The notes under the pieces were generated by a model. It did no database searches. It was given only the letters and a program-made list of their open reading frames with translations, and had not been told where the DNA came from. Positions 11,885 through 55,185 of a stretch of DNA of 64,000 bases are shown piece by piece; within the stretch, counting starts at the first letter, position 1, and every line of letters starts with the position of its first letter. This stretch comes from Acutalibacteraceae bacterium (lineage in GTDB: Bacteria > Bacillota > Clostridia > Oscillospirales > Acutalibacteraceae), in the NCBI GenBank assembly GCA_045537815.1, contig JAZSQD010000127.1, positions 28,949 to 92,948 on the forward strand, given 5' to 3'. A program made the position numbers and the translations under genes.

Positions 11885-12288
11885 AAAATTTTCCTCCTTA
11901 AATGAAAGAATTATATATTACAAATAGGATTCCCTATAATAATACCGAGGCCTCAGACCCTAAAAAAGGGTGCAATATGCCCATAGAGACACCTATAACT
12001 ATAGGTAGTATATCATATGGATTGCAAGTTTTTCAATATATTTTTTAATTTTTTTTCAATTCTACATTTTGCATATATATAAAAAGTTTAATTTGGTAAG
12101 TTTAACAATGGTTTATTTTGGGCTTTTTTTTAGCAAATCTGTATGTTGGATTTGTCTGAAATCAAACCACAATATATTGGATTTTATTCTTTTTGTGTCT
12201 CCTTCTATGTAAAAATTTGTTTTTTCATTCAGGGAGCCTCCGTTTGTATCTGTCATGCTTTCACTTCTGCCAACTTTGCCGGCTTAGC

Positions 12289-12362: not shown

Positions 12363-15300
12363 TCAGATCCTTGAATCAGGACATGCGCAGCATGAAGGCT
12401 TGCCTGCGAAGAACTTAATGATCTTCTGGATAAGTCTGTAGAGGATACCCCAGAAATTATCCTTATGGCATGAGCACTTACATGATTCGTCAACGGGATT
12501 GTTTTCGGGCTGAGCAGTAATGTCACCGCCTGCAACTGAGCCGTCTTCGTTAACTGTAGTATCGTAATGAGTCTTTGTGCTGGTTACGTATACTCTGTAA
12601 TCACCGGGTTCAAGACCTGAGAAGATTACAACACCGTTAGCATCGGTTTCCTTATGTGTAAGGTATGTGTATGCACCGTCTGCCTGCTTTCTGAGAAGCT
12701 CAACTCTTACGTTTGCTGAAGGATTACCGTTTTCATCCTTAACAGTTGCCTTAACTGTGTAGCTGTCGCCGGGAATTTCTTCAGTCTTTGTTACGCCGCA
12801 GCGTGAACATGTGTATGTCATTACACCGGGAGTCTGAGTCTCATATATGGGAGGTGTTGTAACTACGCCGTTACCCCAAGCGTGACCGAGTGCGGGCTGA
12901 GTTGCGTTCACTGATGCATGATATGCACAGCCTGTACATGTGATGGACTGACCGCCTGCAGTTGTACATGTAGGATCAGTATATGCTGTCTGCTTGTTGT
13001 GATCTTCGAGCTCAAGAACGGGTCTTACAGTTGTGTCGCCCTTAACAACATATGTTGCATCCTTGTCCCATTCGCCGCTGAATACATAGTGTCCGTCTTC
13101 AGTGTAGTTATCCTTATAGTCAGTACCGATAATGGTAATTTCGTCTGTTTTACCAACATAAGCGGGAAGTGTTGCACCGTACTTAACCTCAACTGTGTAA
13201 AGAGCTACATCACCCTTATAGCTGAGATATGATACCTTAAACATCTTGTCTGTTGCAGTGAACTTAGCAACGAATGTGATGTCTGCAGTAGCCTTGCCGA
13301 GAACGGTAACTATTGTCTGAGTGTCGTCACCCTTAACAAACCAACCTGCGAATGTATATGTGCTTGCGTTGTCGTCAGGCTTAACGGGTGTTGTTGTGGG
13401 AGCAACGATATCTTCACCAAGCTGATAGTTCTTTGTGCCGAGGCTGAGGCCGTTGTAGTTTTCGAACTTAACGGTTACAGAAACCTTGTTTCTGCTGAGC
13501 TCTTCGCCGCAAACCGAGCACTTGACTACATAGTATGCAACGCCGTCCTTGTCAGTAACTGTTTCGCCGTTTTCAACCTTTTCGCCGTCTACGAGAACAT
13601 ATGAGCCGTCAGCATTCTTCTTGTATGCATCGTGGCCGAGTGCTGCCTTTGTTTCTACTTCGATTTCATCACCACAAGAGCAAATCTTTGCAGTAATTTC
13701 GGGAAGTACGCAATCAGCCTTCTGAATGATACCGTCCTTAACTTCCGGGTTAGCCTCGTCAACAACTGTACCAACCTTGGTATTTACAGCATATGTGTGA
13801 GCTGTAGCTGTAAAGCCTGCATAAAGTCTGGTCTTTTCTGTGATAGCACCTGACTTGATTGAGCCGTCAGCATTGAACTCGACTACGTATTCTTTTTCAC
13901 ATGCTGCATCGGTATACCACTTACCGCTGAATGCATAGTGGTATTCAGCATCATATGCCTTTCCAGGAAGAATGAGAACGTCGTCAGCTTCATCCTCTGT
14001 GCCCTTATTATCGATGTTAGCATATTCTACTACAGCACCGCCGTCAACCTTTGTTGTCCAGATAACCTCTGAGCCGTTGTAGAAGATTACTTCATACTCA
14101 ACAGGCACTGCAACGAAGTATGCTGTAAATGTTGCACTGTCTTCAACTGTGAAGTCTGTAACAAGAACACCTGCTGCATTCTTCCAGCCTCTGAATTCGA
14201 AGGTGTAAAGCTTCTTAAGTCTTGCATCTTCATTTGCATCCTTGTGCTTGAATACGGGAGTACCTGCAGGTACTCTTTCATCACCGTAAGCACCGACAAG
14301 GGTTGCATATACTGTTGTGTCTGATGTGCCGTCTGCAAGAGTCTCAGTCCATGTTGTGGGAACAACAAACTGATGTGTGTAGAGAATCTTGGTTGCCTTA
14401 TAGCTTGCCTTGAGGGTCATATCCTTTGTAACCTCAAGAGGAAGCTTGTATGTAGCACCTGCAGTCTCTTTACCGTCTTCGCCCTTGATTACTTCTACCC
14501 AACCTGCAAAGCTGTATCTGTTTTCCTTAGTTGCAGCCTTTTCGGGAGCGGTAACGTCGGTGTTAGCGATGTATTCGCCTTCGTCCTTTGTAATCTTTGC
14601 AAGCTCAGTGCCGTCTTCCTTAAGGAATGTAACTGTGAATGCTTCTACCTTATCAAGGTCCTTCTTACCGGTCCAGGGACATCCCTCAGTCTTACAAGCA
14701 TACTTAACATAGCCCTGAGTACCGGGAACTGAGTCAACCTTTTCTGTTACATACTTAACGTGTTCACCTGTTGCGGGAACAAGATAATACTTATAATATG
14801 TCTTGCCGTCAATTTCTTCTGTAACCTTAACTTCGGTTTCGTTTTCTTCGCCTTCGTTTTCAATTCTGGTTACATATGTGTAGTTTGCATCTGCATCCTC
14901 TGTGTAGCCGTATGCAGTTTCTGCAGTGGTGATAGCTGTACATACTGTACACTTTTCAACCATTGTGCCGGGCTGATAGCAGTTAGCTTCCTTAACAACT
15001 TCCCATGCCTTTTCGCCGTGACCCTTAGCTGCATAAATTTCGGGATCTGTTTCGTGGTCCTTATGCTCAATAGTTACACCGCAGGAGCAAGCCTTTGTAT
15101 AATAACCGTTGTTTACACAGTCTGCCTCTACCTCGGTAACTGTTACATCTTCATGATTTTTGTCATCAAGTTCAAGCTCCTTGGTAAGATAGCCGCCTTC
15201 GAGCTCGCCGTTACATTCGGTACAGTAAGCCTCGGCAAGACCGTTAGTCTTACAGGTTGATGCTGTTACTGTTGTGTAAATGATTTCGTCGTTATCGTCC

Positions 15301-18300
15301 TTTGCAAATACGTGACCGAGTGCGGGAATTGCGGGTGTTACGCCGTCTTCCTCAAACTCTGTGATAACTTCTTCACCGCAGTTTTCACACTTAACAACTA
15401 CATAACCGTTATTCACACAGTCTGCAGGAGTAACCTGAGGCTGACCCCATACGTGGTCAAGTGCGGGATATACATCGTCTGTCTTTACATCGCCGCAGAT
15501 GATACATACTTCCTTCTTGTAGCCGGCTGCACCACAGGTTGATGCCTGCTCGGTAAGGAGATATGAGTGATCAGCAACCTTAATCTTCTTTGAATACTTG
15601 TTGCCTGACTTATCTGTTGCAGTGATGATTACGTTGTCGATGCCTTCTGCATATTCGATTTCGTATGTGCCGGTTGTTGCATCTGCTTCGTATTCAACCT
15701 CTACAACTTCACCGTTAACGGTAAGAACAACGTCCTTTTCAATACCTGTTACAGTTGCAACACCGCAATAGGTGGGAACAGCTGCTTCATTTGATTCGCC
15801 CTCAACTGTGAAAGCAGGAGCATCATTATCATAGATGAACTTAGCGGTTCTTACCTTTCTGTTAAGCTGGTTACCGGCCTTATCTGTTACATAGTAGTAA
15901 ATGATATAGGCTTCGCCGCTTTCAAGGCTCTTGTATTTGATGTTGCCTTCTTCATCATACTGAACTTCGCCGTTTTCATCAAGGTCAGCAACAATGATAT
16001 CACCGAGCTTAACTGCAAAGTTGGCGTTATTTGTGAGAGCCTCTGACTCATCAACATAAACGTCGAGTGTGAGCTGCTGAGCTGCGCCGTAGTTTTCAGC
16101 TGTAAGAGTATACTTAGCGGGGAATGCAAAGGCTCTGATATACTTAACGCCCATACCGATACCGGAGGGATTGTAGAGAGCATCTACATCACCTGTATCA
16201 TTTGCTGTAATGATAACGTCAGTATTTGCGTTAACAAAAATGCTGATCTCATCGTTATCTGTAATGTTTGCAGCTTCACCCTCTGAGCTCCAGAACTTGC
16301 CGCCGAGATACATGGTACCTGTGCGGATCTCTTCATCGGTAAGCTTATCAATAGACTCAGTCTTGCTTGTCTTAGTCTTATCACATGAGCACCACTTAGT
16401 CATTTCACCCTCTGCATAGTAGGTGGGAGCTGTCTTAAGTTCACTGTTCTCTTTCGGGAAGACGTGATCGCCTTCTGTAAACTTAGCATAAATCTTAGTG
16501 TCTGCTGTGATAACTGTATCTGCTTCAAATGCTGTTGTGCAATCTGCGTCTGTGTACCAGCCGTCAAATGCGTCGTGCTTTTCTGCATCAACATAGCCTG
16601 CCTGAGGATCGGGAATTTCTGCAGTAGCACCGGAAGCAACGGTATATCTGGTTTCGTCGCCCTTGACAACTGTTGTTACTGTATAAACCTTATTTGTAAG
16701 AGTATAGGTTGCATAGAATTCCATTTCTGCAGTAACAATAATGCCTCTTTCATACTTAACTGCGTTGCCTTCTGCATCGTTGTAGTACCAGCCTGCGAAT
16801 ACGTAGTTCTGGCCCTCGGGAGCAGCTTCAAGGCAGGTGAGGTTATCAACTGCAGGTGTATAGAGCTTGCTGTTATAGGTATGATGTGTAGTTGCAAGAA
16901 GATTTGTTTCAACTTCCTTGCCGTTTTCATCTTCGCCGATAGTCTTGTCAGCAACCCATTCGTCGTTTACAAGTCTTGAGTTATACCACTTAACATTGTA
17001 ATACTTATAAACAGGCTTATACTGAGCGATGAAGGTTACATCGTAGCCTTCGCAGAAGGTGGGAACGGGCTTATCCCAACCGAGGAATACATAGTCGTAT
17101 GTTTCATCGGATGCTCTGCTCTGAGCTCCCACTGTAGCTCTGGCAACAAGTGCTTCAATGTTCTGACCCTTCTGATATTCACCTGCACCAAGCTGAACAG
17201 TGCCGTCGTGGTTCATAAATTTAACGGTAAATGTATCGGGAACGAACTTGAACTGTGAATAAAGTGTAAGATTGCCTGCTACCTTATCGGCAGTTGTAAT
17301 CTTGTTACCGTTTGTTGCGTCGGTATTTACCTGCTTCTGGTCATACCAACCCTGGAATTCATATGTACCGCCTTCACCTTCGTAGTCAGCGGGAACATAT
17401 TCTTCGTTTGTCTCTTCTATTATCCATGCAGGAACATTTGAGCCTTGAAGGATTCTTTCTGAATAGGTGTTTGCACCGTCAATATATGTTACGGTGAAGA
17501 AGGGAACAGGATTAGCATAAACAGCCTTGAAGGTTACGTTTGATGTGGGAGTAAAGCCTGTAAGCTCTGAAGTATAGAGCTTGTCGCCTACCTTCTTCTC
17601 TGCACCGCCGACACCCATAGCACCGGCACCTTCAATGATTTCCCACTGGTCTGCATAGGTGTAAAGCTGATCTTCGTGGTCCCAGTTTTCAGCGGGAGTA
17701 AGAGTCTCTACTGTAGAAGGAAGAATGAGCTCCTCATTCTTAACGGTTGCCTGCTTTGAAACATCTGCGCCCTTACCGTCTACATAATTGAATGTAACTG
17801 TGTAGGGAGTTGCAACAGGTGCACCGTAGGTTGCAGTAAGTGTAATGGGTTCAAGGTCTGCATTGCCGTCAAGGGCTGCTTCCTGAATTGAGATGTATTC
17901 GTTTGTGAAGGGGATGGTTGCTGCATAGCCAAGCTTTGCATCGCCGTCCTTGTTTGTGTATGTCCAACCGTCAAAGGTGTAGCCGAAGCCGCCTGTAACA
18001 TATGTATAAGGAACATAGTCTGTGGGAGGTACAAGGCTTGCACCGTACTTAACCTTGAGCTGTCTTGTTGCGTCAGCGCCTGTAGCGTCCTTATAGTTGA
18101 AGTTTACAACATAGGTCTTGGTGTGTCTTCTGTAAACTGCATAGTAGGTTGCATCGTTTCTTACAACCCAGTCGCTGTTAAGACCGATAGCAGTACCGTT
18201 TACGTCAAAGTCTGCATCCTCAAGAAGCACGTGGTAGTTCTTGCCTGTTGTGGGAACTACGCTTGACCAGCCGAGAAGCTCATAACTGAACTGAAGGTCG

Positions 18301-20153
18301 CCGTCAACATCACTGGGAGTTGCCGCAATCTTATCCTTTGCCTCATTCGCACGGTCTGTTATATTCTGACGGTAATCATAAATACCGCCTTCTGTACCAA
18401 CTAAAACAGAATTACCGTTGTTGGGGTTTGTAAACTTAACGTCATACTTATCAACAAAGCCACCGTCAGCAAGCACGATTTCAGGAGTAAGAATAAGAGT
18501 ATCCTTTGTGAAGGTATAGTTGTTGTTTGCTACCTTTTCACCGGTACCGTTATCAATCCATACATTGCGGTTAACATTATATGTGAAAGCACCGCTGGTA
18601 TAAGTTGTATAAGCAGATACAGGCCATTCGATGTCTGCCTGTGTCTGACCGTACTTAACAACCTTCTGGCCGAGGAACTTACCGTCAACATCATAGAACT
18701 TAACGCTGAGATCCTTTGAACACCACCAGCCGTACCATACCTTGTCTGCGCTAATGGTCTTTTCGTTTGCGTCATATTTCGTTCCTGCGTTATAATACTT
18801 TTCAACTGCGCCGTCACCGTCGGAATCTACGGTAACTACCTTGTCGCTTTCTGAAACAACGGCACCTGACATAGCCTTATATGATGTAAAGTCATCATTT
18901 GAACAAGGCTGAGCAAAGTCAGCTGTCTTGTTATAGAACCAGCCTGAGCCTGATGTGGGCTGAGGAGCTGACCAGAATCCGTAGAAGGTATAGCCTTCAG
19001 CTGATGCCTTCTCGTTTGAAGGAGCTGTAAAGCTCTTGCCGTAATATCCTTCTGCTACATATTTGCCTGTGCCGGCAGCACTGAGAGTGTTGCCGCTGCT
19101 ATCCTTAACAGCAGGGTCAAAGGTTGCATCGTTAACGGTACCCTTACCGTCAAAGGTTACTTCATACACAGGATATTTAACGTTGATTGCAGCTGAAGCC
19201 TTTGAAGACTGTGAACCGCCGAAGCCGTCAGATAAGGTATAGGTTCTTACAAGATAGTAATTAGCTGTACCGTTATTGCCGTTAGGCTTACTTGCCTGAA
19301 GGTTAGCCTTAACGATTACATTGTCCTTATCGTTGCCTTCTGCATAGATATCTGCTGCATCATCACCCTCAAGTGCAGAACCGTTGTCAGTAGCTGAAAC
19401 ATGAGTGGTTGTGCTGTCTATGGTGCAATACTTACCGTTATTGATTATATAACTGCTTGCCGCAACACCGTAGTTATCATAAAGTGTATATTTTGAAATA
19501 TCGTAGGTAGTGCCTTTTTTTACATCTGCACCGCCAATCTTGTTAATTTCAACATTGATGGCAGGGTTCTTTCCGCCGGCAGCTGATGCCGTATTGTCAG
19601 TAAAACCGTAGATGTGAGGTCTCGGCCAGGTATAAGTACCCGACCAGTTACCTGATGTGCCTAAATCAGGCTTTTCACCGGTGTTGTAATTAGGATAAAT
19701 TTCACCCTTGTTTGCACCGTTCCAACCTGCATCACCTGTCCAAACCTGTTTACCGTTAATTTTTATCCAGTTAACATCACAGCGGGCCTGGTTATTACCG
19801 CTGCCGCCACCGGTTGTTTCAAGATAAATATAAGTAGGGAAGGCTGATGTTGTAAAGCTTTTGGTATACTCACCCTGTTTGTTGCAGCCCTCTGTTGAGA
19901 AAGAGTTTATGGCAATTTGATTTGCGCTTTGATTTCCTTCCCAACCGTTACCTGTGGTTCTGTACTGAAGGTTACCACTGTTATAGTCATTGTTTGAGAT
20001 GGTAAAGTGAACTTCAACAGTATACTGTGTCTTAACCTCAACATTAGCAGCCTCTGCCTCAGGTGCAAGCCACACCCAACAGGACATAAGCATAAGCACT
20101 GCTAAAAACAGTGACACAGATTTCTTTGCTTGCAATTTTAAATAGTTTTTCAT
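12363..20153 (-). CDS. 2596-aa secreted surface protein with Listeria-Bacteroides-type repeats, Cys-rich modules, a prealbumin-like beta-sandwich and a Cys-flanked amphipathic C-terminal tail
   Basis: Complete ORF with SD AAGGAGG and signal peptide MKNYLKLQAKKSVSLFLAVLMLMSCWVWLAPEAEA. There are many Y-x-F-x-G-W motifs (YTFYGFW, YTFDGWT, YEFQGWY, YVFLGWD, YVFAGWY, YSFAGWV, FEFRGWK, YTFAGWF), typical of Listeria-Bacteroides repeat (Flg_new) domains. H..C...G.....C..C modules lie at about 14930-15580, 13490-13720 and 12790-13010. The segment YTVKATVKDENGNPSANVRVELL...GDYRVYV resembles a carboxypeptidase-regulatory fold. Confidence 0.9.
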   Translation of the reverse strand: MKNYLKLQAKKSVSLFLAVLMLMSCWVWLAPEAEAANVEVKTQYTVEVHFTISNNDYNSGNLQYRTTGNGWEGNQSANQIAINSFSTEGCNKQGEYTKSFTTSAFPTYIYLETTGGGSGNNQARCDVNWIKINGKQVWTGDAGWNGANKGEIYPNYNTGEKPDLGTSGNWSGTYTWPRPHIYGFTDNTASAAGGKNPAINVEINKIGGADVKKGTTYDISKYTLYDNYGVAASSYIINNGKYCTIDSTTTHVSATDNGSALEGDDAADIYAEGNDKDNVIVKANLQASKPNGNNGTANYYLVRTYTLSDGFGGSQSSKASAAINVKYPVYEVTFDGKGTVNDATFDPAVKDSSGNTLSAAGTGKYVAEGYYGKSFTAPSNEKASAEGYTFYGFWSAPQPTSGSGWFYNKTADFAQPCSNDDFTSYKAMSGAVVSESDKVVTVDSDGDGAVEKYYNAGTKYDANEKTISADKVWYGWWCSKDLSVKFYDVDGKFLGQKVVKYGQTQADIEWPVSAYTTYTSGAFTYNVNRNVWIDNGTGEKVANNNYTFTKDTLILTPEIVLADGGFVDKYDVKFTNPNNGNSVLVGTEGGIYDYRQNITDRANEAKDKIAATPSDVDGDLQFSYELLGWSSVVPTTGKNYHVLLEDADFDVNGTAIGLNSDWVVRNDATYYAVYRRHTKTYVVNFNYKDATGADATRQLKVKYGASLVPPTDYVPYTYVTGGFGYTFDGWTYTNKDGDAKLGYAATIPFTNEYISIQEAALDGNADLEPITLTATYGAPVATPYTVTFNYVDGKGADVSKQATVKNEELILPSTVETLTPAENWDHEDQLYTYADQWEIIEGAGAMGVGGAEKKVGDKLYTSELTGFTPTSNVTFKAVYANPVPFFTVTYIDGANTYSERILQGSNVPAWIIEETNEEYVPADYEGEGGTYEFQGWYDQKQVNTDATNGNKITTADKVAGNLTLYSQFKFVPDTFTVKFMNHDGTVQLGAGEYQKGQNIEALVARATVGAQSRASDETYDYVFLGWDKPVPTFCEGYDVTFIAQYKPVYKYYNVKWYNSRLVNDEWVADKTIGEDENGKEVETNLLATTHHTYNSKLYTPAVDNLTCLEAAPEGQNYVFAGWYYNDAEGNAVKYERGIIVTAEMEFYATYTLTNKVYTVTTVVKGDETRYTVASGATAEIPDPQAGYVDAEKHDAFDGWYTDADCTTAFEADTVITADTKIYAKFTEGDHVFPKENSELKTAPTYYAEGEMTKWCSCDKTKTSKTESIDKLTDEEIRTGTMYLGGKFWSSEGEAANITDNDEISIFVNANTDVIITANDTGDVDALYNPSGIGMGVKYIRAFAFPAKYTLTAENYGAAQQLTLDVYVDESEALTNNANFAVKLGDIIVADLDENGEVQYDEEGNIKYKSLESGEAYIIYYYVTDKAGNQLNRKVRTAKFIYDNDAPAFTVEGESNEAAVPTYCGVATVTGIEKDVVLTVNGEVVEVEYEADATTGTYEIEYAEGIDNVIITATDKSGNKYSKKIKVADHSYLLTEQASTCGAAGYKKEVCIICGDVKTDDVYPALDHVWGQPQVTPADCVNNGYVVVKCENCGEEVITEFEEDGVTPAIPALGHVFAKDDNDEIIYTTVTASTCKTNGLAEAYCTECNGELEGGYLTKELELDDKNHEDVTVTEVEADCVNNGYYTKACSCGVTIEHKDHETDPEIYAAKGHGEKAWEVVKEANCYQPGTMVEKCTVCTAITTAETAYGYTEDADANYTYVTRIENEGEENETEVKVTEEIDGKTYYKYYLVPATGEHVKYVTEKVDSVPGTQGYVKYACKTEGCPWTGKKDLDKVEAFTVTFLKEDGTELAKITKDEGEYIANTDVTAPEKAATKENRYSFAGWVEVIKGEDGKETAGATYKLPLEVTKDMTLKASYKATKILYTHQFVVPTTWTETLADGTSDTTVYATLVGAYGDERVPAGTPVFKHKDANEDARLKKLYTFEFRGWKNAAGVLVTDFTVEDSATFTAYFVAVPVEYEVIFYNGSEVIWTTKVDGGAVVEYANIDNKGTEDEADDVLILPGKAYDAEYHYAFSGKWYTDAACEKEYVVEFNADGSIKSGAITEKTRLYAGFTATAHTYAVNTKVGTVVDEANPEVKDGIIQKADCVLPEITAKICSCGDEIEVETKAALGHDAYKKNADGSYVLVDGEKVENGETVTDKDGVAYYVVKCSVCGEELSRNKVSVTVKFENYNGLSLGTKNYQLGEDIVAPTTTPVKPDDNASTYTFAGWFVKGDDTQTIVTVLGKATADITFVAKFTATDKMFKVSYLSYKGDVALYTVEVKYGATLPAYVGKTDEITIIGTDYKDNYTEDGHYVFSGEWDKDATYVVKGDTTVRPVLELEDHNKQTAYTDPTCTTAGGQSITCTGCAYHASVNATQPALGHAWGNGVVTTPPIYETQTPGVMTYTCSRCGVTKTEEIPGDSYTVKATVKDENGNPSANVRVELLRKQADGAYTYLTHKETDANGVVIFSGLEPGDYRVYVTSTKTHYDTTVNEDGSVAGGDITAQPENNPVDESCKCSCHKDNFWGILYRLIQKIIKFFAGKPSCCACPDSRI

Positions 20154-21930: not shown

Positions 21931-22019
21931 TGACTACTTACTACTTGCTACTGACTACTCGGACGGCCAATGGCCGCCCCTACTCCCTATTCCCTAATCC
22001 CTAATCCCTGATCCCTGAT
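21931..22019 (-). repeat. Composite repeat: (TGACTAC-like)x4, a REP hairpin, then (CCCTNNT)x6
   Basis: Heptamers tgactac ttactac ttgctac tgactac at 21931-21958. REP at 21960-21983 (reverse complement GTAGGGGCGGCCATTGGCCGTCCG). Heptamers ccctact ccctatt ccctaat ccctaat ccctgat ccctgat at 21978-22019. This is the inverted partner of 24574-24663. Confidence 0.9.
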
Positions 22020-24573: not shown

Positions 24574-24950
24574 ATTAGGGACCAGGGATTAGAGATTAGT
24601 TGTAAGGGTCAAGGGAGTAGGGGCGGCCATTGGCCGTCCGAGTAGTCAGTAGTCAGTAGTCAGGGAAACGCCCGTTGGGCGTTTAATGGTGTGAGCCGAT
24701 TTATGCACTTAAAATAAAACCTCTCCCGTAGGGGAGGGCCTGTGTGCCCTCCCGGACAACTTGACGGGTAGGTGTATTTAACGGTTAACTCGGACGGTCG
24801 CCGTGGGCGTCGACCGCTACAATCTACCACTTAGATGCTGCACAAAACTTACCTCTGCGGAAAGAAACATAAATCGGTCAACGTAGTTACCCCGCGACCG
24901 CACCTATTCCCTAGTCCCTAATCCCTAGTCCCTAGTCCCAAGCCCCTGAC
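24574..24950. mobile_element. 377-bp non-coding composite element bounded by inverted G-rich/C-rich heptamer arrays (MITE/BIME-like)
   Basis: Left end: attaggg-type heptamers (24574-24623), REP GTAGGGGCGGCCATTGGCCGTCCG (24617-24640) and (AGTAGTC)x3 (24641-24663). The interior carries hairpin aacgccc-gtt-gggcgtt (24667-83), REP GTAGGGGAGGGCctgtgtGCCCTCCC (24728-53) and an inverted REP (24791-24820). Right end: ccctagt ccctaat ccctagt ccctagt (24909-24950). No ORF is present. Confidence 0.75.
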
Positions 24951-26434: not shown

Positions 26435-26899
26435 GAGGAAGAAGTAGTCAGTAGCCAGTAGTCAGTAGTCAGGATTCTAGTTTAACTATAAGTGTGTTGA
26501 GCATTCTCGCAACTTCTTTGCATAAATCAAAAGCTCTATCCGCTTGTTCCTGCGTTATAAAACCCTGCCGTATACAAATTATCAATTGTGTTTCAATCTC
26601 AGCTCTTGAGCTTCTTGCCACAGACAAAAACTGACTGTACTCTTTTTTTGATTTTCTCTCATAGCCTTCTGCAATATTTGACGGGATAGAAACTGCTGCT
26701 CTTCTCATCTGATCGGAAAGAGCGAACATTTCTTCTTTTGGCAAAAGTTTTACAATCTTATAAGTTTCGTCCACTAAATCCATAGACCTCTGCCAGACTA
26801 TCAAGTCTTTGCAACCGTTTATATATCTTCACCTCGTCTCAAAATGCACCGTAGGTGCATCTCTGACTACTGACTACTGACTACTGACTACTCTTCCTC
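26435..26899. mobile_element. Inverted-repeat-flanked cassette carrying a four-helix-bundle gene, inserted in the glgD-glgA spacer
   Basis: IR-L is gaggaagaagtagtcagtagccagtagtcagtagtcag (26435-26471). The reverse complement of IR-R (26863-26899) is agaggaagagtagtcagtagtcagtagtcagtagtcag. By hand alignment the two match apart from one indel and about two substitutions. The cassette lies 15 nt after the glgD stop and about 20 nt before the glgA SD. Confidence 0.8.
26469..26804 (-). CDS. Four-helix-bundle protein (23S rRNA intervening-sequence protein / Avd-like family)
   Basis: Carries the family motifs (DL)IVWQRSMDLV...LPKEE...L.DQMRRAAVSIPSNIAEGYER.SKKEY.QFL.VARSS.AEIETQL. The only available start is a TTG inside the conserved DLIVWQ motif, with no clear SD. 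The N-terminus is therefore shorter than the family norm and the gene may be decaying. Confidence 0.75.
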   Translation of the reverse strand: MIVWQRSMDLVDETYKIVKLLPKEEMFALSDQMRRAAVSIPSNIAEGYERKSKKEYSQFLSVARSSRAEIETQLIICIRQGFITQEQADRAFDLCKEVARMLNTLIVKLES

Positions 26900-29284: not shown

Positions 29285-29480
29285 TAAGTGAGTTTTTCAG
29301 GGGATTAGGTAACCCTCTCCGTCAGATGCCTTGCATCTGCCACCTCTCCCTGAGGGAGAGGCAAGAGTAAAGCAACTTGGTAAGAAGTATCTATCTTGGC
29401 TCTCCCTTTGGGAGAGCTGTCACGAAGTGACTGAGAGGGTATCCCTTGCTACTTGCTACTTACTACTTGCTACTTGCTAC
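29285..29480. repeat. Composite intergenic element: degenerate gggattagg, a multi-hairpin CTCTCCC/GGGAGAG module, then (TTGCTAC)x5
   Basis: Closing stem accctctc (29312-19) / gagagggt (29433-40) encloses four hairpins at 29323-39, 29343-61, 29399-417 and 29419-31. The heptamer array spans 29446-29480. Confidence 0.8.
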
Positions 29481-31368
29481 TTTTCTTAGGCTTATACTTA
29501 AGCAGAGTGAAGCTGAAGCCGGGCAAATCAAGAGTGATGCTGTTATCGAAGCCGTGCATAGGCACCTTCTTTGAGGTCGCTCTCTTACTGCCCTTGCCCT
29601 CGCCGCCGAATTCCTCGGCATCAGAGGAAAGGATAACCTCGTATACACCCTCTCTTTCCACACCGAAGGAGTATTTCTCCCTCATAACCGGCGTGAGATT
29701 ACATACTGCCACAAGCTCGTTGCCTTTTTTGTCTTTTCTTGCGAATGCGATAACACTGTTCTGATTGTCGTCACTCACAAGCCACTTGAAGCCCTCCCAG
29801 CTGTAATCAATTTCCCAGAAGGCGGGATTTTTAAGATAGATGTGATTGAGCTTCTTTACATAAGCCTTGAGCTGACGGTGCTTTTCATAGCCGAGAAGCA
29901 GCCAGTCAAGCTCACTGTCATACTTCCATTCGATAAACTGACCGAATTCCTGACCCATAAAGGTAAGCTTCTTACCCGGGTGAGCCATAAGGTAGCCGAG
30001 GAATGAACGTATGCCGCTGAATTTTTCCTCATATTCTCCCGGCATCTTGCCGATAAGTGAGCATTTTCCGTGAACAACCTCATCGTGTGAAATGGGAAGG
30101 ATAAAGTTTTCGGAAAAAGCATAGAAGAAGGAGAAGGTGAGAAGATTATGGTTATACTTTCTTGAAAGACCGTCCATCGAGAAATATCTCAGGGCGTCAT
30201 TCATCCAGCCCATATTCCATTTGAAGTTGAAGCCGAGGCCGCCGATATCCGTGGGCTTTGTCACAAGAGGCCAGGCAGTGCTTTCCTCGGCAATCATCAG
30301 GGGATTTTTAAACTCGCGGAAGATACCTGAGTTAAGCTTCCTGAGAAATTCAACAGCCTCAAGATTTTCGTTGCCGCCGTACTTGTTGGCAATCCATTCG
30401 CCGTCCTTTCTGCCGTAGTCAAGATAAAGCATTGAAGCAACTGCGTCAACACGAAGTCCGTCAATGTGATATTTATCCATCCAGAAGGCGGCCGATGAGG
30501 TAAGGAAGGAAATAACCTCGTTTCTGCCGAAGTCGAATATCTTTGTGCCCCAATCCTTATGCTCGCCCTTTTTCGGGTCCTTGTATTCGTAGCAGGCTTC
30601 ACCGTCAAAGTCAGCAAGTCCGTGTTCATCTCTCGGGAAGTGGGCAGGCACCCAGTCGAGAATAACGGAAATACCGTTCTGATGACACTTATCAACAAAG
30701 TACATAAGGTCGTCGGGAGTACCGTAGCGGGAGGTTGCGGCAAAGTAGCCGATTACCTGATATCCCCATGAGCCGTCGAAGGGATATTCGCTAAGGGGCA
30801 TAAGCTCAATGTGAGTGTAGCCCATATCCTTGACGTAGGGTACAAGACTTTCGGCAAGATCTCTGTAAGAATAAGGGTTGCCGTCCTCGTGAATTTTCCA
30901 CGAGCCTGCGTGCACCTCATAGATATTCATCGGAGACTCGTAAACGTTTATATTCGCCTTTTCTTTTTGCCATTTGCTGTCCTTCCACTTGTATGATCCC
31001 AGCTCATAAATCTTTGAGGCGGTCTCAGGCCTTGTCTGTGAGTGGAAGGCATAGGGGTCGCACTTGGCTGTTTTTTTGCCCGAGGGTGCCGTAACGAGGA
31101 ATTTGTAGCAGTCATACTGCTTTACTCCTTCAAGATAGCATTCCCACATTCCCGCATCGTTGATTTTTGTCATGGTGCCCTTTGATTCATCCCAGCCGTT
31201 AAAGTCACCTATAACGCTGACCGCCGCGGCGTGGGGAGCCCATACACGGAAAGAGAAAAGCTTATCGGTAACCCTGTGAGCGCCCATGTATTCGTAGGCC
31301 TTCATATTGTTGCCCTGATGAAACAGATAAAGGGCAACATCGTCACCTTTGGGTTTCTTTTCTGTCAT
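29470..31368 (-). CDS. glgB: 1,4-alpha-glucan branching enzyme
   Basis: 632 aa with a GH13 catalytic core ([28 protein letters not shown]). Its last codons, AGT AGC AAG TAG, lie inside the AGTAGCA heptamer array. Confidence 0.95.
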
Positions 31369-34214: not shown

Positions 34215-34225
34215 GTGCTTGAGGA

Positions 34226-34464
34226 GGGATTAGGGATTAGGGATTAGTAGCAAAGGTAAGGGTTTTGATATTAGTAGTCAGTAGCCAGTAGCCAGTAGTC
34301 AGGGGAACGCCCGTCGGGCGTTTAATGGCGTAAGCCAATTCATGCCTCCGAGCAAAAATGATACGGTAGGGACACGGCTCGCCGTGTCCGCAAACCTGAC
34401 CGATAAATATATTTAATTTAACACGGTAGGGGCGTCCGTTGTGTCGTCCGAGTAGTCAGTAGTA
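34226..34464 (+). repeat. Composite repeat: (GGGATTA)x3, (AGTAGTC/AGTAGCC)x4, a conserved backbone, two REP hairpins and a second AGTAGTC stub
   Basis: Coordinates are gggattagggattagggattag at 34226-50 and the AGTAGTC array at 34273-34300. The backbone 34294-34346 matches 24657-24709 with 7 mismatches in 53 nt (hand alignment). REPs are GTAGGGACACGGCtcGCCGTGTCC (34366-90) and GTAGGGGCGTCCGttgtgtCGTCCG (34426-50). The stub agtagtcagtagta is at 34451-64. Confidence 0.85.
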
Positions 34465-34470
34465 AGGAAC

Positions 34471-34540
34471 TAATGGCGTGAGCCAATTCATGCCATAGGC
34501 AATTCATGACAAGGTCAATTCATGGCGTAGCCAATTCATT
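34471..34540 (+). repeat. Mini-hairpin array A: four 11-12-nt hairpins separated by ATTCA
   Basis: Hairpins are tggc-gtga-gcca (34474-85), tgcc-ata-ggca (34491-501), tgac-aag-gtca (34507-17) and tggc-gta-gcca (34523-33). Each is followed by attca. Confidence 0.9.
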
Positions 34541-34576
34541 CCATACAATATTATTGAGGGACCGGCAGCCAACAAC

Positions 34577-34659
34577 TGACCGCAGGTCAATAACACTATG
34601 CGAAGCGTAATATCACTGCATAGCAATAAAACTGCCGAGTGTCCTTGCGGACACTCGGC
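34577..34659 (-). repeat. Mini-hairpin array C (short copy) ending in the MFS gene terminator hairpin
   Basis: Order on the plus strand: tgacc-gca-ggtca, ATAACACT, atgc-gaa-gcgt, AATATCAC, tgc-ata-gca, ATAAAACT, gccgagtgtcc-ttgc-ggacactcggc (34634-59). This is near-identical to 38691-38788. Confidence 0.9.
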
Positions 34660-38590: not shown

Positions 38591-38788
38591 AAGTGATATT
38601 CCGACTGTGTCGGAGTGGTATTATTGCCACAGGCAATAGTAATATTGAAACTTTCAGTTTCAGTTTTATTTTATTCGCAAAAAACTTGCGAAGCAAATAA
38701 CACTATGCGAAGCATAATATCACTGCAAAGCAATAAAACTCGCCGCAAGGCGAATAAAACTGCCGAGTGTCCCGTAAGGACACTCGGC
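38591..38788. repeat. Mini-hairpin array C: eight small hairpins with AGTNNTATT-type spacers, mirrored between convergent genes
   Basis: The left arm reads on the plus strand: ccgac-tgt-gtcgg, gcc-aca-ggc and gaa-act-ttc, each followed by AGTGGTATTATT / AATAGTAATATT / AGTTTCAGTTTTATTTTATT. The centre is cgcaa-aaaac-ttgcg. The right arm reads on the minus strand: atgc-gaa-gcat, tgc-aaa-gca, cgcc-gcaa-ggcg and the 11-bp hairpin at 38762-88, each followed on the minus strand by AGTGTTATT / GTGATATT / AGTTTTAT / AGTTTTATT. Confidence 0.9.
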
Positions 38789-52191: not shown

Positions 52192-53679
52192 ATGATAAGC
52201 AAAAGTGTAAAGAAACTTGTTAATTACGGCCTTGCAACGGAGCTTATTTCCAAAGCTGATGAAATTTATGCAAGAAACCGCATACTTGAGATATTGCATA
52301 TTGACGAGTACAAAGAAAGTGAAGATAAGTGTGCAGGCACCAACCTTGAAGAAATACTTTCAGAGCTTCTGAGTTATGCAGTGGAAAAGGGTATCATTGA
52401 TGACAATATCACTGACAGAGATTTATTTGACACCAAGCTCATGAGTGCATTGGTACCAAGACCTAGTGAAGTAATAAATAAGTTCTATTCAATTTATAAG
52501 ACTTCACCCAAAGAAGCAACGGAATATTACTACAAGCTCAGCAGGGACACAGACTACATAAGACGCTACCGTATAGCTAAGGACCTTAAGTGGACAACGG
52601 ACACAGACTACGGCGTAATTGACATCACCGTAAATCTTTCCAAACCCGAAAAAGACCCAAAGGCTATTGAAGCGGCAAAGAATGCTCCCCAGAGCGCATA
52701 TCCCAAATGTATGCTCTGTGTTGAAAATGAAGGCTACGCCGGCAGAGGCAATCACCCTGCAAGACAGAACCACAGAATTATCCCCGTTCAGATTGACGGC
52801 GGAAAGTGGGGCTTCCAGTATTCACCTTATGTTTACTATAATGAGCATTGCATAGTTTTCAACTCACAGCACACGCCTATGGTAATCAACAAGGGTGCTT
52901 TCAAAAAGCTATTTGATTTTGTCAAGCTCTTCCCTCACTATTTTGTGGGTTCAAATGCTGACCTTCCTATCGTTGGCGGCTCCATTCTTGCTCACGAGCA
53001 TTTCCAGGGCGGCAACTATGAATTTGCCATGGCGAAGGCACCTTGCGAAGAGTGTTTCACCGTAGAAGGCTTTGAAGATGTAAACGTCGGCATAGTCAAA
53101 TGGCCTATGTCAGTTATCAGACTCAGCAGCGCAGACACAGACCGTCTTGTTGAGTTGGGCGATAAAATTCTCACAAAGTGGCGAGCTTACACTGATGAAG
53201 ATGCCTTCATTTTTGCCGAGACCAAGGGTACACCCCACAACACCATAACACCTATTGCAAGAAAGCGCGGCGACAAATATGAGCTTGACCTTGTGCTTCG
53301 CAACAACATCTGCACCGAGGAGCATCCCTTAGGTGTCTACCATCCTCACGAGGAGCTGCACAACATCAAAAAGGAAAACATCGGTCTTATAGAGGTTATG
53401 GGTCTTGCCGTACTGCCCTCAAGACTTAAGTCAGAGCTGAAAATGGTTTGCGACTGCCTTGTTTCAGGTGAAGACCTGACGAAAAACGAAGCCACTGCAA
53501 AGCATGCTGACTGGGTTGCAACCTTCAAGGACAATTACACCTTCACCGAAGAAAATGCTGATGCCATTATCAAAAATGAGACCGGCAAGGTCTTCCTGAA
53601 GTGCCTTGAACACGCAGGTGTTTACAAGCGTGACGAAAAGGGTATGGCAGCATTCAGAAAGTTTATTGCAACAATATAA
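52192..53679 (+). CDS. galT: Galactose-1-phosphate uridylyltransferase, type 2
   Basis: 495 aa with the HEHFQGG motif and the long Firmicutes-type GalT architecture. Confidence 0.9.
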   Translation: MISKSVKKLVNYGLATELISKADEIYARNRILEILHIDEYKESEDKCAGTNLEEILSELLSYAVEKGIIDDNITDRDLFDTKLMSALVPRPSEVINKFYSIYKTSPKEATEYYYKLSRDTDYIRRYRIAKDLKWTTDTDYGVIDITVNLSKPEKDPKAIEAAKNAPQSAYPKCMLCVENEGYAGRGNHPARQNHRIIPVQIDGGKWGFQYSPYVYYNEHCIVFNSQHTPMVINKGAFKKLFDFVKLFPHYFVGSNADLPIVGGSILAHEHFQGGNYEFAMAKAPCEECFTVEGFEDVNVGIVKWPMSVIRLSSADTDRLVELGDKILTKWRAYTDEDAFIFAETKGTPHNTITPIARKRGDKYELDLVLRNNICTEEHPLGVYHPHEELHNIKKENIGLIEVMGLAVLPSRLKSELKMVCDCLVSGEDLTKNEATAKHADWVATFKDNYTFTEENADAIIKNETGKVFLKCLEHAGVYKRDEKGMAAFRKFIATI

Positions 53680-53680
53680 T

Positions 53681-53959
53681 ACAAGCTTTGCAGAAGCTTG
53701 TATATCATATTTGCCCACGGCAAATATATCATTGGGCATCAGCCCTATATCATGTCGCGTCAGCGATACATCATTAATTCTTTTGCATTACAATTATGCA
53801 AAAAGGAGCAGACTCAGAGTCTGCTCCTTTGATTTTATTCTGACTTGCAGATTTTTTTGAATGATATATCGCCTTAGGCGATATGATATACAGCTAAAGC
53901 TGTATGATATATTTCCAATGCGCGAAATATGATATACGGAGCTGCCCACGACAGCTCCG
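53681..53959. repeat. Mini-hairpin array B: two mirrored arms of hairpins spaced by TATATCAT around a central bidirectional terminator
   Basis: Left arm (plus strand): acaagctt-tgcag-aagcttgt, ttgcc-cac-ggcaa, gggc-atca-gccc and tcgc-gtca-gcga, each followed by TATATCAT(A/T), ATATATCAT, TATATCAT or TACATCATT. Centre: ggagcagact-cag-agtctgctcc (about 53804-53830). Right arm: tcgcc-tta-ggcga, cagc-taaa-gctg, tttc..gaaa and cggagctg-cccacga-cagctccg, each preceded on the plus strand by (A/T)ATGATATA, the reverse complement of TATATCAT. Confidence 0.9.
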
Positions 53960-53970
53960 TATCTTATTTA

Positions 53971-55185
53971 TTAAAGACTGTTAATCATACTCAGATGCTC
54001 AACATACAATGTTTTGACATCATTCATCTTTGTCATACCGCCCTGAAGTGACATATGGTCAGCGCAATAAACAGGCATTACATTCCAGATGCCGGGATTT
54101 ACGCTTCCTTCAACATAATCTGTCCAGGGTGCGCTTGAGGGAGCCATAGCTGAAATTGTGTTTACGAGACCGTCATTTTCAAGCCATGTTTCGTCGATTA
54201 CATATCCGCCCTTTGTTACACCTGTGTATGCGCCCATTGCTGCTGAGGATGAAACAAAGAGTGATTCCATCTTGCTCTTTATGGGAGCATAGGTGCCGTC
54301 TGCCTGCTTTTCTGTTGCTGAGCATGGAATTGCAAAATAATATGTATCCTTATAGGTGATAATTGTCTTGTTAAGCTCAAGGGCATTATCTATATACATA
54401 TCATAGGACGCGTAGTCGCTTTCGATTCTGCCGTCTTTCTCACCGCCGGTGAAGGTACTCATAAGCTCATTCATTACCGAGCTGAGCTTATCCTTTATGG
54501 GGTTGCTCTTTTCAGGTTCTTCTTCGGGTGCTTCTTCAGGCTTTTCTTCGTGTTCATCCACATTATATGTTGAAGTGCCGTTACTGGGTGCTGCAAGAGC
54601 GGTTACGGAATAAATCCAATCTCCCTTGCCTCCCTTGAAGTAATCTGAAAGCTCACCCTTAGGTGTAGCCGCAATTTCTTCGGCACTGCCCTTTTCCATT
54701 ATGCTTGCAAAAAGTCTGACTGTTGCACCGCCGAAGGAGTGTCCTAAAAGGTTGATTTTATCCTTTTCGCTGAAAGAATCGATAAGGGCTCTGCCTGTGA
54801 AGTCCTCGCCGTATCTTTCGTGGTTGCATCTTTCGCTGTGTGCCTTGCCGTAGTCTGTCTTTGTACCTGTCAGCTGTGCATAAAGCTCGCAGGCTCTGTC
54901 CCAGGCGCTGTTTGTGGGGGCAACGGAAGCAGCCGCCACATCAAAACCCTTATCTCTGAGATATTCCATAAGGTCGCCGCCGAACATACCCCAATAAGGC
55001 ATAATCTTATAGATGTCATCATACTCGCCCCAACCCGAAAGGCCGTGAACGAAAACATAGGTGTAATTTGTGTTCCAATTAGTGTCATCAGCTTTGAGCA
55101 GTTCAAGGTTTATGCCGAAAAGCATAGCCACTGACATTACAAGGCTTGTAAGTTTGTAGATAATCTGATGAAGGATAGCTGCCAT
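53971..55185 (-). CDS. Secreted triacylglycerol lipase/esterase (alpha/beta hydrolase, family I.5/I.6-like)
   Basis: Has VFVHGLSGWGE, SAWDRACELYAQLTG, KTDYGKAHSE and the nucleophile elbow GHSFGG. Confidence 0.8.
   Translation of the reverse strand: MAAILHQIIYKLTSLVMSVAMLFGINLELLKADDTNWNTNYTYVFVHGLSGWGEYDDIYKIMPYWGMFGGDLMEYLRDKGFDVAAASVAPTNSAWDRACELYAQLTGTKTDYGKAHSERCNHERYGEDFTGRALIDSFSEKDKINLLGHSFGGATVRLFASIMEKGSAEEIAATPKGELSDYFKGGKGDWIYSVTALAAPSNGTSTYNVDEHEEKPEEAPEEEPEKSNPIKDKLSSVMNELMSTFTGGEKDGRIESDYASYDMYIDNALELNKTIITYKDTYYFAIPCSATEKQADGTYAPIKSKMESLFVSSSAAMGAYTGVTKGGYVIDETWLENDGLVNTISAMAPSSAPWTDYVEGSVNPGIWNVMPVYCADHMSLQGGMTKMNDVKTLYVEHLSMINSL

Follow-up and report, generated by a model that had tools for sequence, protein, structure and literature searches.

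Array B, two inverted Gut-1-type hairpin modules around a common terminator, belongs to a dispersed repeat family of gut Clostridia

We analysed a 64,000-nt stretch of DNA from an Acutalibacteraceae bacterium (the window) and sought to identify the origin of array B, a row of short hairpins in the spacer between galT and a lipase-like gene. Array B takes its name from the arrays A, B and C of an earlier reading of the same DNA, which we call the original prediction. The two flanking genes had been assigned correctly: galT (52192-53679, plus strand) and the lipase-like gene (53971-55185, minus strand) are convergent and leave a spacer of 291 nt. The design proposed for this spacer, mirrored palindromes and words arranged around a bidirectional terminator, is real. 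On the plus strand the left arm consists of four palindromes, each followed by the octamer word TATATCAT. In the right arm ATGATATA is found at 53861, 53883, 53904 and 53929, and a palindrome follows each copy; the third of these is weak, with 4-7 pairs and an 8-nt loop. The palindromes of the two arms are mirrored around the 14-bp stem of the terminator. The octamer had been counted eight times. There are indeed eight word sites, but only seven exact copies lie within 53701-53936, and the fourth left-arm copy, at 53767, is TACATCAT, a near copy with a single mismatch. The features of the spacer are as follows.

53680-53702, plus strand: outer left hairpin hp0, TACAAGCTT-TGCAG-AAGCTTGTA, one base past the galT stop; its last two bases overlap the first word.
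53701-53774, plus strand: left three-hairpin module, with the TATATCAT sense in the galT mRNA sense; 79.9 bits with the covariance model R1 described below.
53701-53708, 53725-53732, 53746-53753 and 53767-53774, plus strand: words of the left module, the last being the degenerate TACATCAT.
53707-53727, 53734-53745 and 53755-53766, plus strand: hairpins hp1, hp2 and hp3 of the left module.
53781-53803, unstranded: AT-rich hairpin TTTTGCAT-tacaatt-ATGCAAAA, immediately before the terminator.
53802-53839, unstranded: common bidirectional intrinsic terminator, with a perfect 14-bp stem AAAGGAGCAGACTC/GAGTCTGCTCCTTT at 53802-53830.
53850-53860, plus strand: T-run GATTTTTTTGA entering the right arm, the counterpart of the TGAAAA with which modules of other genomes end.
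53861-53936, minus strand: right three-hairpin module, with the TATATCAT sense on the minus strand and thus in the lipase mRNA sense; 80.3 bits with R1.
53866-53884, 53888-53905 and 53909-53930, minus strand: hairpins of the right module.
53934-53962, minus strand: outer hairpin of the right arm, ATACGGAGCTG-loop-CAGCTCCGTAT, at a distance of 8 nt from the lipase stop.

T-rich tracts follow the 14-bp stem on both strands, giving the GC-rich stem-loop and T-tract of an intrinsic terminator in either direction. The octamer is concentrated in the array. The window contains nine copies against 2.15 +/- 1.38 expected, a count of nine or more that was reached in none of 100 shuffles; seven of the nine lie inside array B, and the two found in the other 63.7 kb are at chance level. 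Within the array the words recur with a period of ~21-22 bp. When the two convergent 3' untranslated regions were folded, each gave a row of four stem-loops plus the terminator (z -8.9 and -9.6 against shuffles), and seven terminator-like sites were found in array B where 0.3 were expected. As a check for the terminal inverted repeats of a miniature inverted-repeat transposable element, the arms were compared with each other; they are inverted, yet only 72% complementary over 54 nt.

The only meaningful match of array B in Rfam was Gut-1 (RF01706), a motif that has been reported only from human gut sequences and was judged a likely RNA on its covariation (Weinberg et al., 2010; PMC2864571). 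Our literature search on Gut-1, the word and hairpin repeats of Clostridia returned nothing beyond this 2010 paper. Other weak Rfam matches (C/D-box snoRNAs, microRNAs, AbsR25 and others) were set aside as chance similarity to AUGAU words or to the terminator. The right arm scored 33.9 bits on the plus strand (E 2e-4) and the left arm 21.7 bits on the minus strand, against a gathering score of 50; in the relative L201 (loci are cited by our L numbers) the scores were 37.6 and 35.0 bits. The cmscan alignment spans model positions 1-77 and retains hairpins 2 and 3, with the linker AUGAUAU(A) in array B. Besides these sub-threshold scores, the linker word sets array B apart from the Rfam model. 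Three consecutive short hairpins, each after a GUGAAAU-like linker, are the hallmark of Gut-1 and are found in array B as well. Both have at least three short GC-rich hairpins flanked by an A/U-rich heptamer or octamer, GUGAAAU or GUGAUAU in Gut-1 and AUGAUAUA in array B, and seed sequences of Gut-1 with GUGAUAU linkers bridge the two words. Both have UCGC..GCGA as the stem of the first hairpin with CAAUGA before it, lie directly after a terminator and often after a tRNA, occur on contigs of gut Clostridia type, and show mirrored arms, in the case of Gut-1 in its seed. The seed alignment also shares the arrangement that we found at L017, L035 and L074, in which a tRNA and a terminator are followed by hairpins in one sense and then in the other. 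The remaining differences concern how Gut-1 was described. The Rfam model covers one arm only, and Gut-1 was presented as a stand-alone RNA of the human gut, whereas here the element corresponds to a dispersed repeat that is common in metagenome-assembled genomes (MAGs) from ruminant and other guts. The loops of the Rfam consensus are of the U..C form, which places this consensus on the strand opposite to TATATCAT.

The design is not confined to array B. Further arrays lie at 34474-34538, 34577-34659, 38593-38669 and 38674-38788 of the window, so that the recurrence claimed in the original prediction holds, and the loci 34474-34659 and 38593-38788 are probably its arrays A and C. Gut-1 matches reach 48.3 bits at 38692-38762 and 36.3 bits at 34570-34634, again under the threshold of 50. 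In all, the 64 kb of the window contain five Gut-1-like arms, spread over three loci; the Rfam model detects four of these arms. The words in these arrays are ATTCA(T), ATAACAC, ATATCAC and ATAAAAC, and in the opposite sense GTGATAT, GTGGTAT and GTAATAT. TATATCAT, ATATCAC, ATAACAC, ATAAAAC, ATTCAT and the Gut-1 linker (reverse complement ATTTCAC/ATATCAC) are variants of one word. The octamer of array B had been presented as an independent third spacer word; it instead falls into this one word family, and arrays B and C match the same Rfam model. At 38.6 kb two convergent genes have their terminators on either side of the array, which is a mirrored composite; in L204 the spacer orthologous to this one measures only 52 nt and contains a plain terminator.

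We next consider how widely the module is distributed. In a scan of species-representative genomes for three words 10-20 nt apart, at least 120 loci matched, nearly all of them in Clostridia MAGs: those of Acutalibacteraceae, Oscillospiraceae and Faecousia, together with bins from ruminant and other guts that bear the label 'Eubacteriales' or 'Clostridia'. Distinct GC-rich hairpins make up 87 of the 133 arrays at these loci. A recurrent module emerged, TATATCAT-ATTTGC..GCAAA-TATATCAT-ACGGC..GCCG-TATATCAT-ATCGC..GCGA-TATATCAT-TGAAAA, to which the arms of array B are 80-87% identical in blastn across many species: the left arm matched modules in L017, L044, L072 and others at 81-84%, and the right arm matched modules at ~25 loci at 80-87%. 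The stems of array B had been called all different from one another. They are better described as copies of this conserved module, with the stems ATTTGC/GCAAA, ACGGC/GCCG and ATCGC/GCGA common to many species. A custom covariance model, R1, built on an alignment of 40 modules in which the arms of the window and of L201 were themselves included, scored ~80 bits on each arm of array B. The same model, which is too word-specific for arrays with variant words, found no match in 545 kb of contigs from more distant Clostridia; these control contigs came from a metagenome scan with galT, and on them the relatives are at most 68% identical and arrays are absent. A scan of plasmid and phage collections for the spaced words gave no match. 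Matches from a scan of viral contigs were rejected as AT-rich plain tandem repeats, mostly from giant-virus bins, with a true module in one of 88 arrays (L248). The original prediction had tied its case to enrichment of the octamer and to presence of the array in close relatives. Octamer enrichment outside the arrays is absent and most close relatives lack an array at this locus, yet the module is widespread, and it is this spread through other genomes that makes array B a genuine element despite a test that half failed. The claim that the design is a general phenomenon, and not a local accident, stands. These results firmly establish that array B consists of two inverted three-hairpin modules of Gut-1 type, each with one outer hairpin, around a common terminator, and that it belongs to a dispersed, terminator-associated repeat family that is structurally constrained and rapidly turning over.

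One carrier is a complete isolate genome, L074 (NZ_CP188040.1; its deposited name is Alloiococcus sp. CFN-8, and the Lactobacillales label is that of the record). Its composite, at ~1300-1700 of the locus, stands directly after a 5S rRNA, a tRNA-Asn and a terminator.

The structural constraint can be seen in the pairing. In the 40-module alignment, 84.3% of cells were paired as compared to 65.3% after shuffling, double changes occurred at 12 of 13 pairs, and 0 of 500 shuffles reached these values; since RNAalifold predicted no pairs on the gappy module alignment, pairing was counted on a structure that we supplied. Units delimited by words contained 1052 Watson-Crick pairs and 48 others (30 G-T, 10 A-C and 8 of other kinds). 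An excess of G-T over A-C mismatches, here 30:10, favours folding of the TATATCAT strand. The loops point to the same strand. Among 173 distinct perfect hairpins, the loop has 3 nt in 91 and 4 nt in 74, the closing pair is C-G in 153, and loops of the form G..A number 85 as compared to none of the form T..C (p 5e-26). Within the G..A tetraloops, GNRA (19) and GNYA (23) are about equally frequent, so that there is no purine preference at position 3. Nearest-neighbour energies also prefer the TATATCAT strand, by 46 to 18 with RNA parameters and by 57 to 8 with DNA parameters; because both favour this strand, the energies do not decide between RNA and DNA. The folded strand is therefore probably the TATATCAT strand, opposite to the Rfam orientation, and the family stands in Rfam already, apparently on the wrong strand.

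A possible alternative fold was noticed in a second subfamily of arrays that start right after a terminator (L015, L016, L020, L025, L028, L040, L080, L107, L110 and L111). Three hairpins downstream of the first hairpin lies a sequence (for example CTGTCGGCTTG) complementary to that hairpin's 5' half and loop (CAAGCCGACAG), and the two copies covary between species. Their pairing would enclose three hairpins in a cloverleaf-like fold. The same arrangement is present in the first subfamily (ATATCCGTTCC ... GGAACGGATAT).

The turnover of the family was followed at the galT locus itself, on the contigs of graded galT relatives obtained by protein search (L201-L208). L201, whose galT is 95% identical, has the same array. 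Between it and the window, four-fold degenerate sites are identical at a fraction of 0.85 in galT and 0.81 in the lipase gene, while words are identical at 61 of 62 positions, the centre at 81 of 90 and the hairpin segments at only 91 of 134, and all hairpins still pair. In the outer right hairpin three base pairs have changed, all with full compensation. At the place of the outer left hairpin L201 has a different perfect palindrome, and L203 has an imperfect homologue of that hairpin; the 14-bp terminator stem is identical in L201, and L203 has a homologous terminator. Words are thus constrained in place, and stems are free or even accelerated provided that they pair.

Whole arrays and their units change as well. 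In L203 (galT 91%) the arrays have collapsed to hp0, one word and the central terminator, followed by the remnant of one word, the pattern expected if units are lost between words. In L208 (galT 91%) the lipase gene is present behind a 53-nt spacer with a plain bidirectional terminator, whose base (ACGG..CCGT-AT..TTATTT) resembles the outer right hairpin of the window; this hairpin is probably a remnant of the plain terminator seen at the same position in L208. At the galT locus of L202, L204/L205, L206 and L207 the array is absent. The lipase gene is itself variable among relatives with galT 89-95% identical, being found in the window, L201, L203 and L208 and not in L202, L204, L205 and L207. 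A comparison of the filled with the empty site (window and L208) revealed no recognisable target-site duplication, and the spacer is replaced. Tandem growth is evident in other genomes, where neighbouring units are identical in 14 of 215 adjacent pairs and in 11 of 77 at distance two, the latter reflecting two-unit periodic duplications. Arrays therefore gain, lose and duplicate units, and whole arrays come and go among close relatives. The strain comparison proposed in the original prediction thus finds arrays that are present, collapsed or absent.

The surroundings of the arrays are diverse. The original prediction tied them to the 3' ends of genes, a link that is too narrow: arrays also follow the terminators of tRNA and rRNA operons, stand just upstream of promoters, and occur in both orientations. 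Orientation relative to flanking open reading frames (ORFs) shows no bias. A mirrored arm follows in 40 of 85 arrays, 11 of 85 end in TTGAAA/TTGACA, used by a promoter downstream as its -35 box (16-18 nt spacing), and at least six run into a terminator. Starts within 45 nt after a terminator were found for 23 of 78 arrays in the TATATCAT sense as compared to 4 in the other sense. Word-to-word spacing across arrays is 19-26 bp. The flanking genes are unrelated housekeeping genes (89 flanking ORFs, 105 Pfam families), with one family recurring, PF05635, a four-helix-bundle '23S rRNA IVS protein' resembling Avd. ORFs of this type number 15 in 14 of the 120 array loci (829 kb) and none in the 545-kb control. 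PF05635 genes adjoin the composite in L002, L003, L018, L022, L029, L035, L037, L054, L059, L068, L072, L078 and L120, often driven by a promoter that uses the TTGAAA end of the module as its -35 box; none was seen in the window. The 89 flanking ORFs contain no transposase, nuclease, recombinase or primase by Pfam, a result that concerns the neighbours of the arrays and leaves RAYT (REP-associated tyrosine transposase) genes elsewhere in the genomes outside its scope. No linked replication or regulator gene was found in the window or among the flanking ORFs, and GC skew across the window yielded no replication direction.

We read array B as two inverted Gut-1-type copies of a dispersed, terminator-associated extragenic repeat of uncultured Clostridia (Eubacteriales in the NCBI taxonomy), comparable to repetitive extragenic palindromic (REP) elements and bacterial interspersed mosaic elements (BIMEs), that would serve as a 3'-end stack and backstop. 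We hold this reading with confidence that is about evenly balanced. REP elements and BIMEs, known from E. coli and other Enterobacteria and from Pseudomonas, are extragenic, GC-rich imperfect palindromes in inverted clusters that favour 3' ends and convergent gene pairs, and effects on mRNA stability, termination and host-protein binding have been reported for them (PMC3184786). The family shares with them the clustered, inverted, imperfect GC-rich palindromes outside genes, the 3' ends and convergent pairs, the compensating changes and the presence that varies between strains. Array B lies between convergent genes, and mirrored arms (40 of 85) and starts after a terminator (23 of 78) recur in the family. 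In copy number, REP elements reach hundreds per genome; the 64-kb window has three loci, and two loci were seen in some MAGs. There are also clear differences. The stems of REP elements are conserved within a genome and have a 5' GTAG next to them, whereas here the stems vary and the linker is conserved. REP elements are associated with RAYT, whereas no Y1 transposase is encoded among the 89 ORFs flanking our arrays. The units here are smaller (11-18 nt), and the host belongs to the Bacillota, not to the Proteobacteria. The BOX and SPRITE repeats of Streptococcus pneumoniae offer a second comparison: they too are modular intergenic repeats with variable internal units, stable predicted folds, a bias towards the 3' ends of genes that converge and a terminator-like shape (PMC3184786). 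They have no sequence similarity to the family, however; BOX units are conserved and 45-59 nt long, and their mobilisation is thought to depend on the transposase of an insertion sequence.

For the REP/BIME-like reading, the following mechanism may be envisaged. From the position of the arms, each of the two convergent mRNAs would have a run of four stable stem-loops after its stop codon and ahead of the terminator, and a polymerase reading through the terminator would meet four more units of hairpin plus A/U-tract beyond it. By analogy to BIMEs, the array would then act as a hairpin stack at the 3' end and as a backstop for termination, insulating the two convergent genes, and the arms would protect the 3' ends of the mRNAs. 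Word conservation across many species implies a conserved reader, and the word presented between hairpins may be read by a host factor that is itself conserved, be it a protein or a nucleic-acid enzyme. Units would turn over through slippage or recombination between the words.

Several points weigh against this reading. An effect of the arrays on mRNA stability or termination is suggested by analogy to the reported repeats, and the words are only moderately U-rich, which makes single units poor intrinsic terminators. The orientation of arrays relative to neighbouring transcription is not fixed, and in the other two arrays of the window the mRNA of the nearest gene does not have the sense of the strand whose loops are stable; a role at the level of mRNA alone can therefore not explain the whole family. 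The loops c(GNA)g and c(GNNA)g moreover fit mini-hairpins of single-stranded DNA better than RNA tetraloops (PMC13037366), and array B itself follows the G..A loop rule weakly.

In the main rival the arrays are elements of single-stranded DNA: rows of mini-hairpins with a recognition word for a DNA enzyme (a RAYT-like HUH/Y1 transposase, a recombinase, or a primase or polymerase) that spreads, reshuffles or uses the arrays when the strand is exposed in replication or transcription. We consider it unlikely, though it competes better than the other alternatives. The mini-hairpin GCGAAAGC melts at 76.5 C as DNA as compared to 39 C as RNA, and the motif GCGNAGC/GCGNNAGC occurs at priming sites and single-strand promoters (PMC13037366). 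The loop signature of the family, c(GNA)g and c(GNNA)g, is this DNA motif, with C-G closing and a G..A loop of 3-4 nt, and CCGAAGG occurs verbatim in the family. The 153 of 173 C-G closings, the 85 G..A loops without a counterpart, the loop lengths of 3-4 nt and the lack of a purine preference at position 3 all agree with hairpins far more stable as DNA than as RNA (PMC13037366). An orientation independent of neighbouring transcription, a mirrored design by which each strand is sure to contain one arm in the folding sense, and the presence, absence and unit turnover among close relatives are likewise what such an element would show. The reported cases, however, are single hairpins in phage and plasmid origins, not a tandem chromosomal array with a conserved spacer word. 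In array B the match to the motif is partial: GTCA and T-GCA-G fit, and CAC, ATCA, TTTA and TAA do not, so that most of its loops are other than G..A. The 89 ORFs that flank the arrays include no transposase, recombinase or primase, and the HUH/Y1 'manufacturer' suggested in the original prediction was not seen there, nor was another candidate. The filled and empty sites show no target-site duplication; the stems vary, whereas HUH/Y1 enzymes usually read specific hairpins; and words conserved in place are unexpected for a spent insertion.

In a more specific version, which we regard as doubtful, the arrays would be the product of an undescribed single-stranded DNA system of the Bacillota, whose enzyme reads ATATCAY and inserts, exchanges or deletes hairpin 'cassettes'. 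Such exchange would explain why words are conserved and the palindromic spacers between them hypervariable, and the PF05635 genes beside the composite could be part of it. If this were true, the system would parallel REP-RAYT or integron attC recombination in function, but with a different logic, the linker being read and the stem free. Integron attC sites themselves do not fit array B. [quoted passage not shown]

Sponge RNA, neutral slippage product and duplex-binding array are less likely. The first corresponds to the original proposal for Gut-1, a stand-alone small RNA, whose linkers would titrate an RNA-binding protein as CsrB and RsmZ do for CsrA; we give it little credence. Gut-1 was rated a likely RNA on covariation (PMC2864571), the hairpins do covary, and a linker word conserved across many species with multiple sites per molecule has the design of a sponge. 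CsrB and RsmZ likewise carry many copies of a short motif on a row of hairpins. Their motif, however, is GGA in the loops, and they are single-copy genes with their own promoter, whereas our element is multi-copy, with the linker as its conserved word. Five Gut-1-like arms per 64 kb in unrelated contexts, many loci per clade and variable presence at orthologous sites are the behaviour of a repeat and not of a gene. No conserved promoter was seen, with arms starting at the T-tract of a terminator, and the loop bias indicates the strand opposite to the Rfam model.

The arrays could also be a functionless by-product, in which tandem slippage between words, together with template-switch 'correction' of quasi-palindromes in replication, builds and keeps up perfect palindromes in terminator zones, which are non-coding and safe. 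Identical neighbouring units, two-unit periodic duplications, the collapsed arrays of L203 and the location in spacers after terminators would all follow, as would hairpins that change faster than silent sites and still stay perfect. We think this a little less credible again: many species have one and the same 8-mer conserved together with the same set of three stems, identity is 98% in the words against 81-85% at silent sites, and a strand-symmetric mutational process is not expected to yield a loop bias of 85 to 0. Very improbable is an array bound as double-stranded DNA, in which the words would be iteron- or operator-like sites for a protein that blocks polymerases or regulates an adjacent promoter: the ~21-22 bp period of array B, the arms mirrored around a centre and the 11 of 85 arrays that end in a TTGAAA/TTGACA -35 box would suit it, yet a word spacing of 19-26 bp does not keep helical phasing, duplex binding does not explain covarying palindromes and strand-biased loops, and with that spacing and no linked rep or regulator gene, iterons and operator arrays were rejected as known classes.

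Other repeats and genes were noticed in the window. Tandem arrays of period 7 (21933-22016, 24578-24663, 24903-24947, 26443-26472, 26863-26892, 29445-29482 and 34225-34302) fill the spacers of a run of minus-strand genes, with units that include AGTAGTC, AGTAGCC, CCCTAAT/AGGGATT, CCTAGTC, CTGACTA and CTTGCTA, and often flank a conserved small hairpin, CGGCCAATGGCCG. Other heptamers (AACTCCT and TTCTGCG) stand beside the lipase gene in L203, at ~11000-11100. With these arrays the lineage seems to have a second class of dynamic intergenic repeats, unrelated to the first. A segment AACGCCCG(T)TCGGGCGTTTAATGG(C/T)GT(A/G)AGCC... is repeated beside heptamer arrays at 24665-24700 and 34305-34345, which suggests larger composite repeats. 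At the start of the window are two giant tandem ORFs on the minus strand, one at 1-11917 of at least 3972 amino acids that runs off the edge, and one at 12363-20153 of 2596 amino acids. Recoded or non-coding DNA at 1-12 kb was considered and rejected; the region is one giant open-ended ORF crossing the window edge, and hence missing from the ORF list.

Gut-1 has been an orphan motif since 2010. Our results indicate that the motif represents a single arm of a far larger and fast-evolving repeat family, one that fills the terminator zones of a dominant group of Clostridia from gut and rumen. This calls for caution in the annotation of RNA motifs and terminators in these genomes. The filled, collapsed and empty alleles at the galT locus provide a clear set for testing function, the isolate L074 is a possible cultured carrier that could serve as an experimental host, and the arrays are usable as a marker for strain typing. 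The family may be the Bacillota counterpart of REP/BIME elements.

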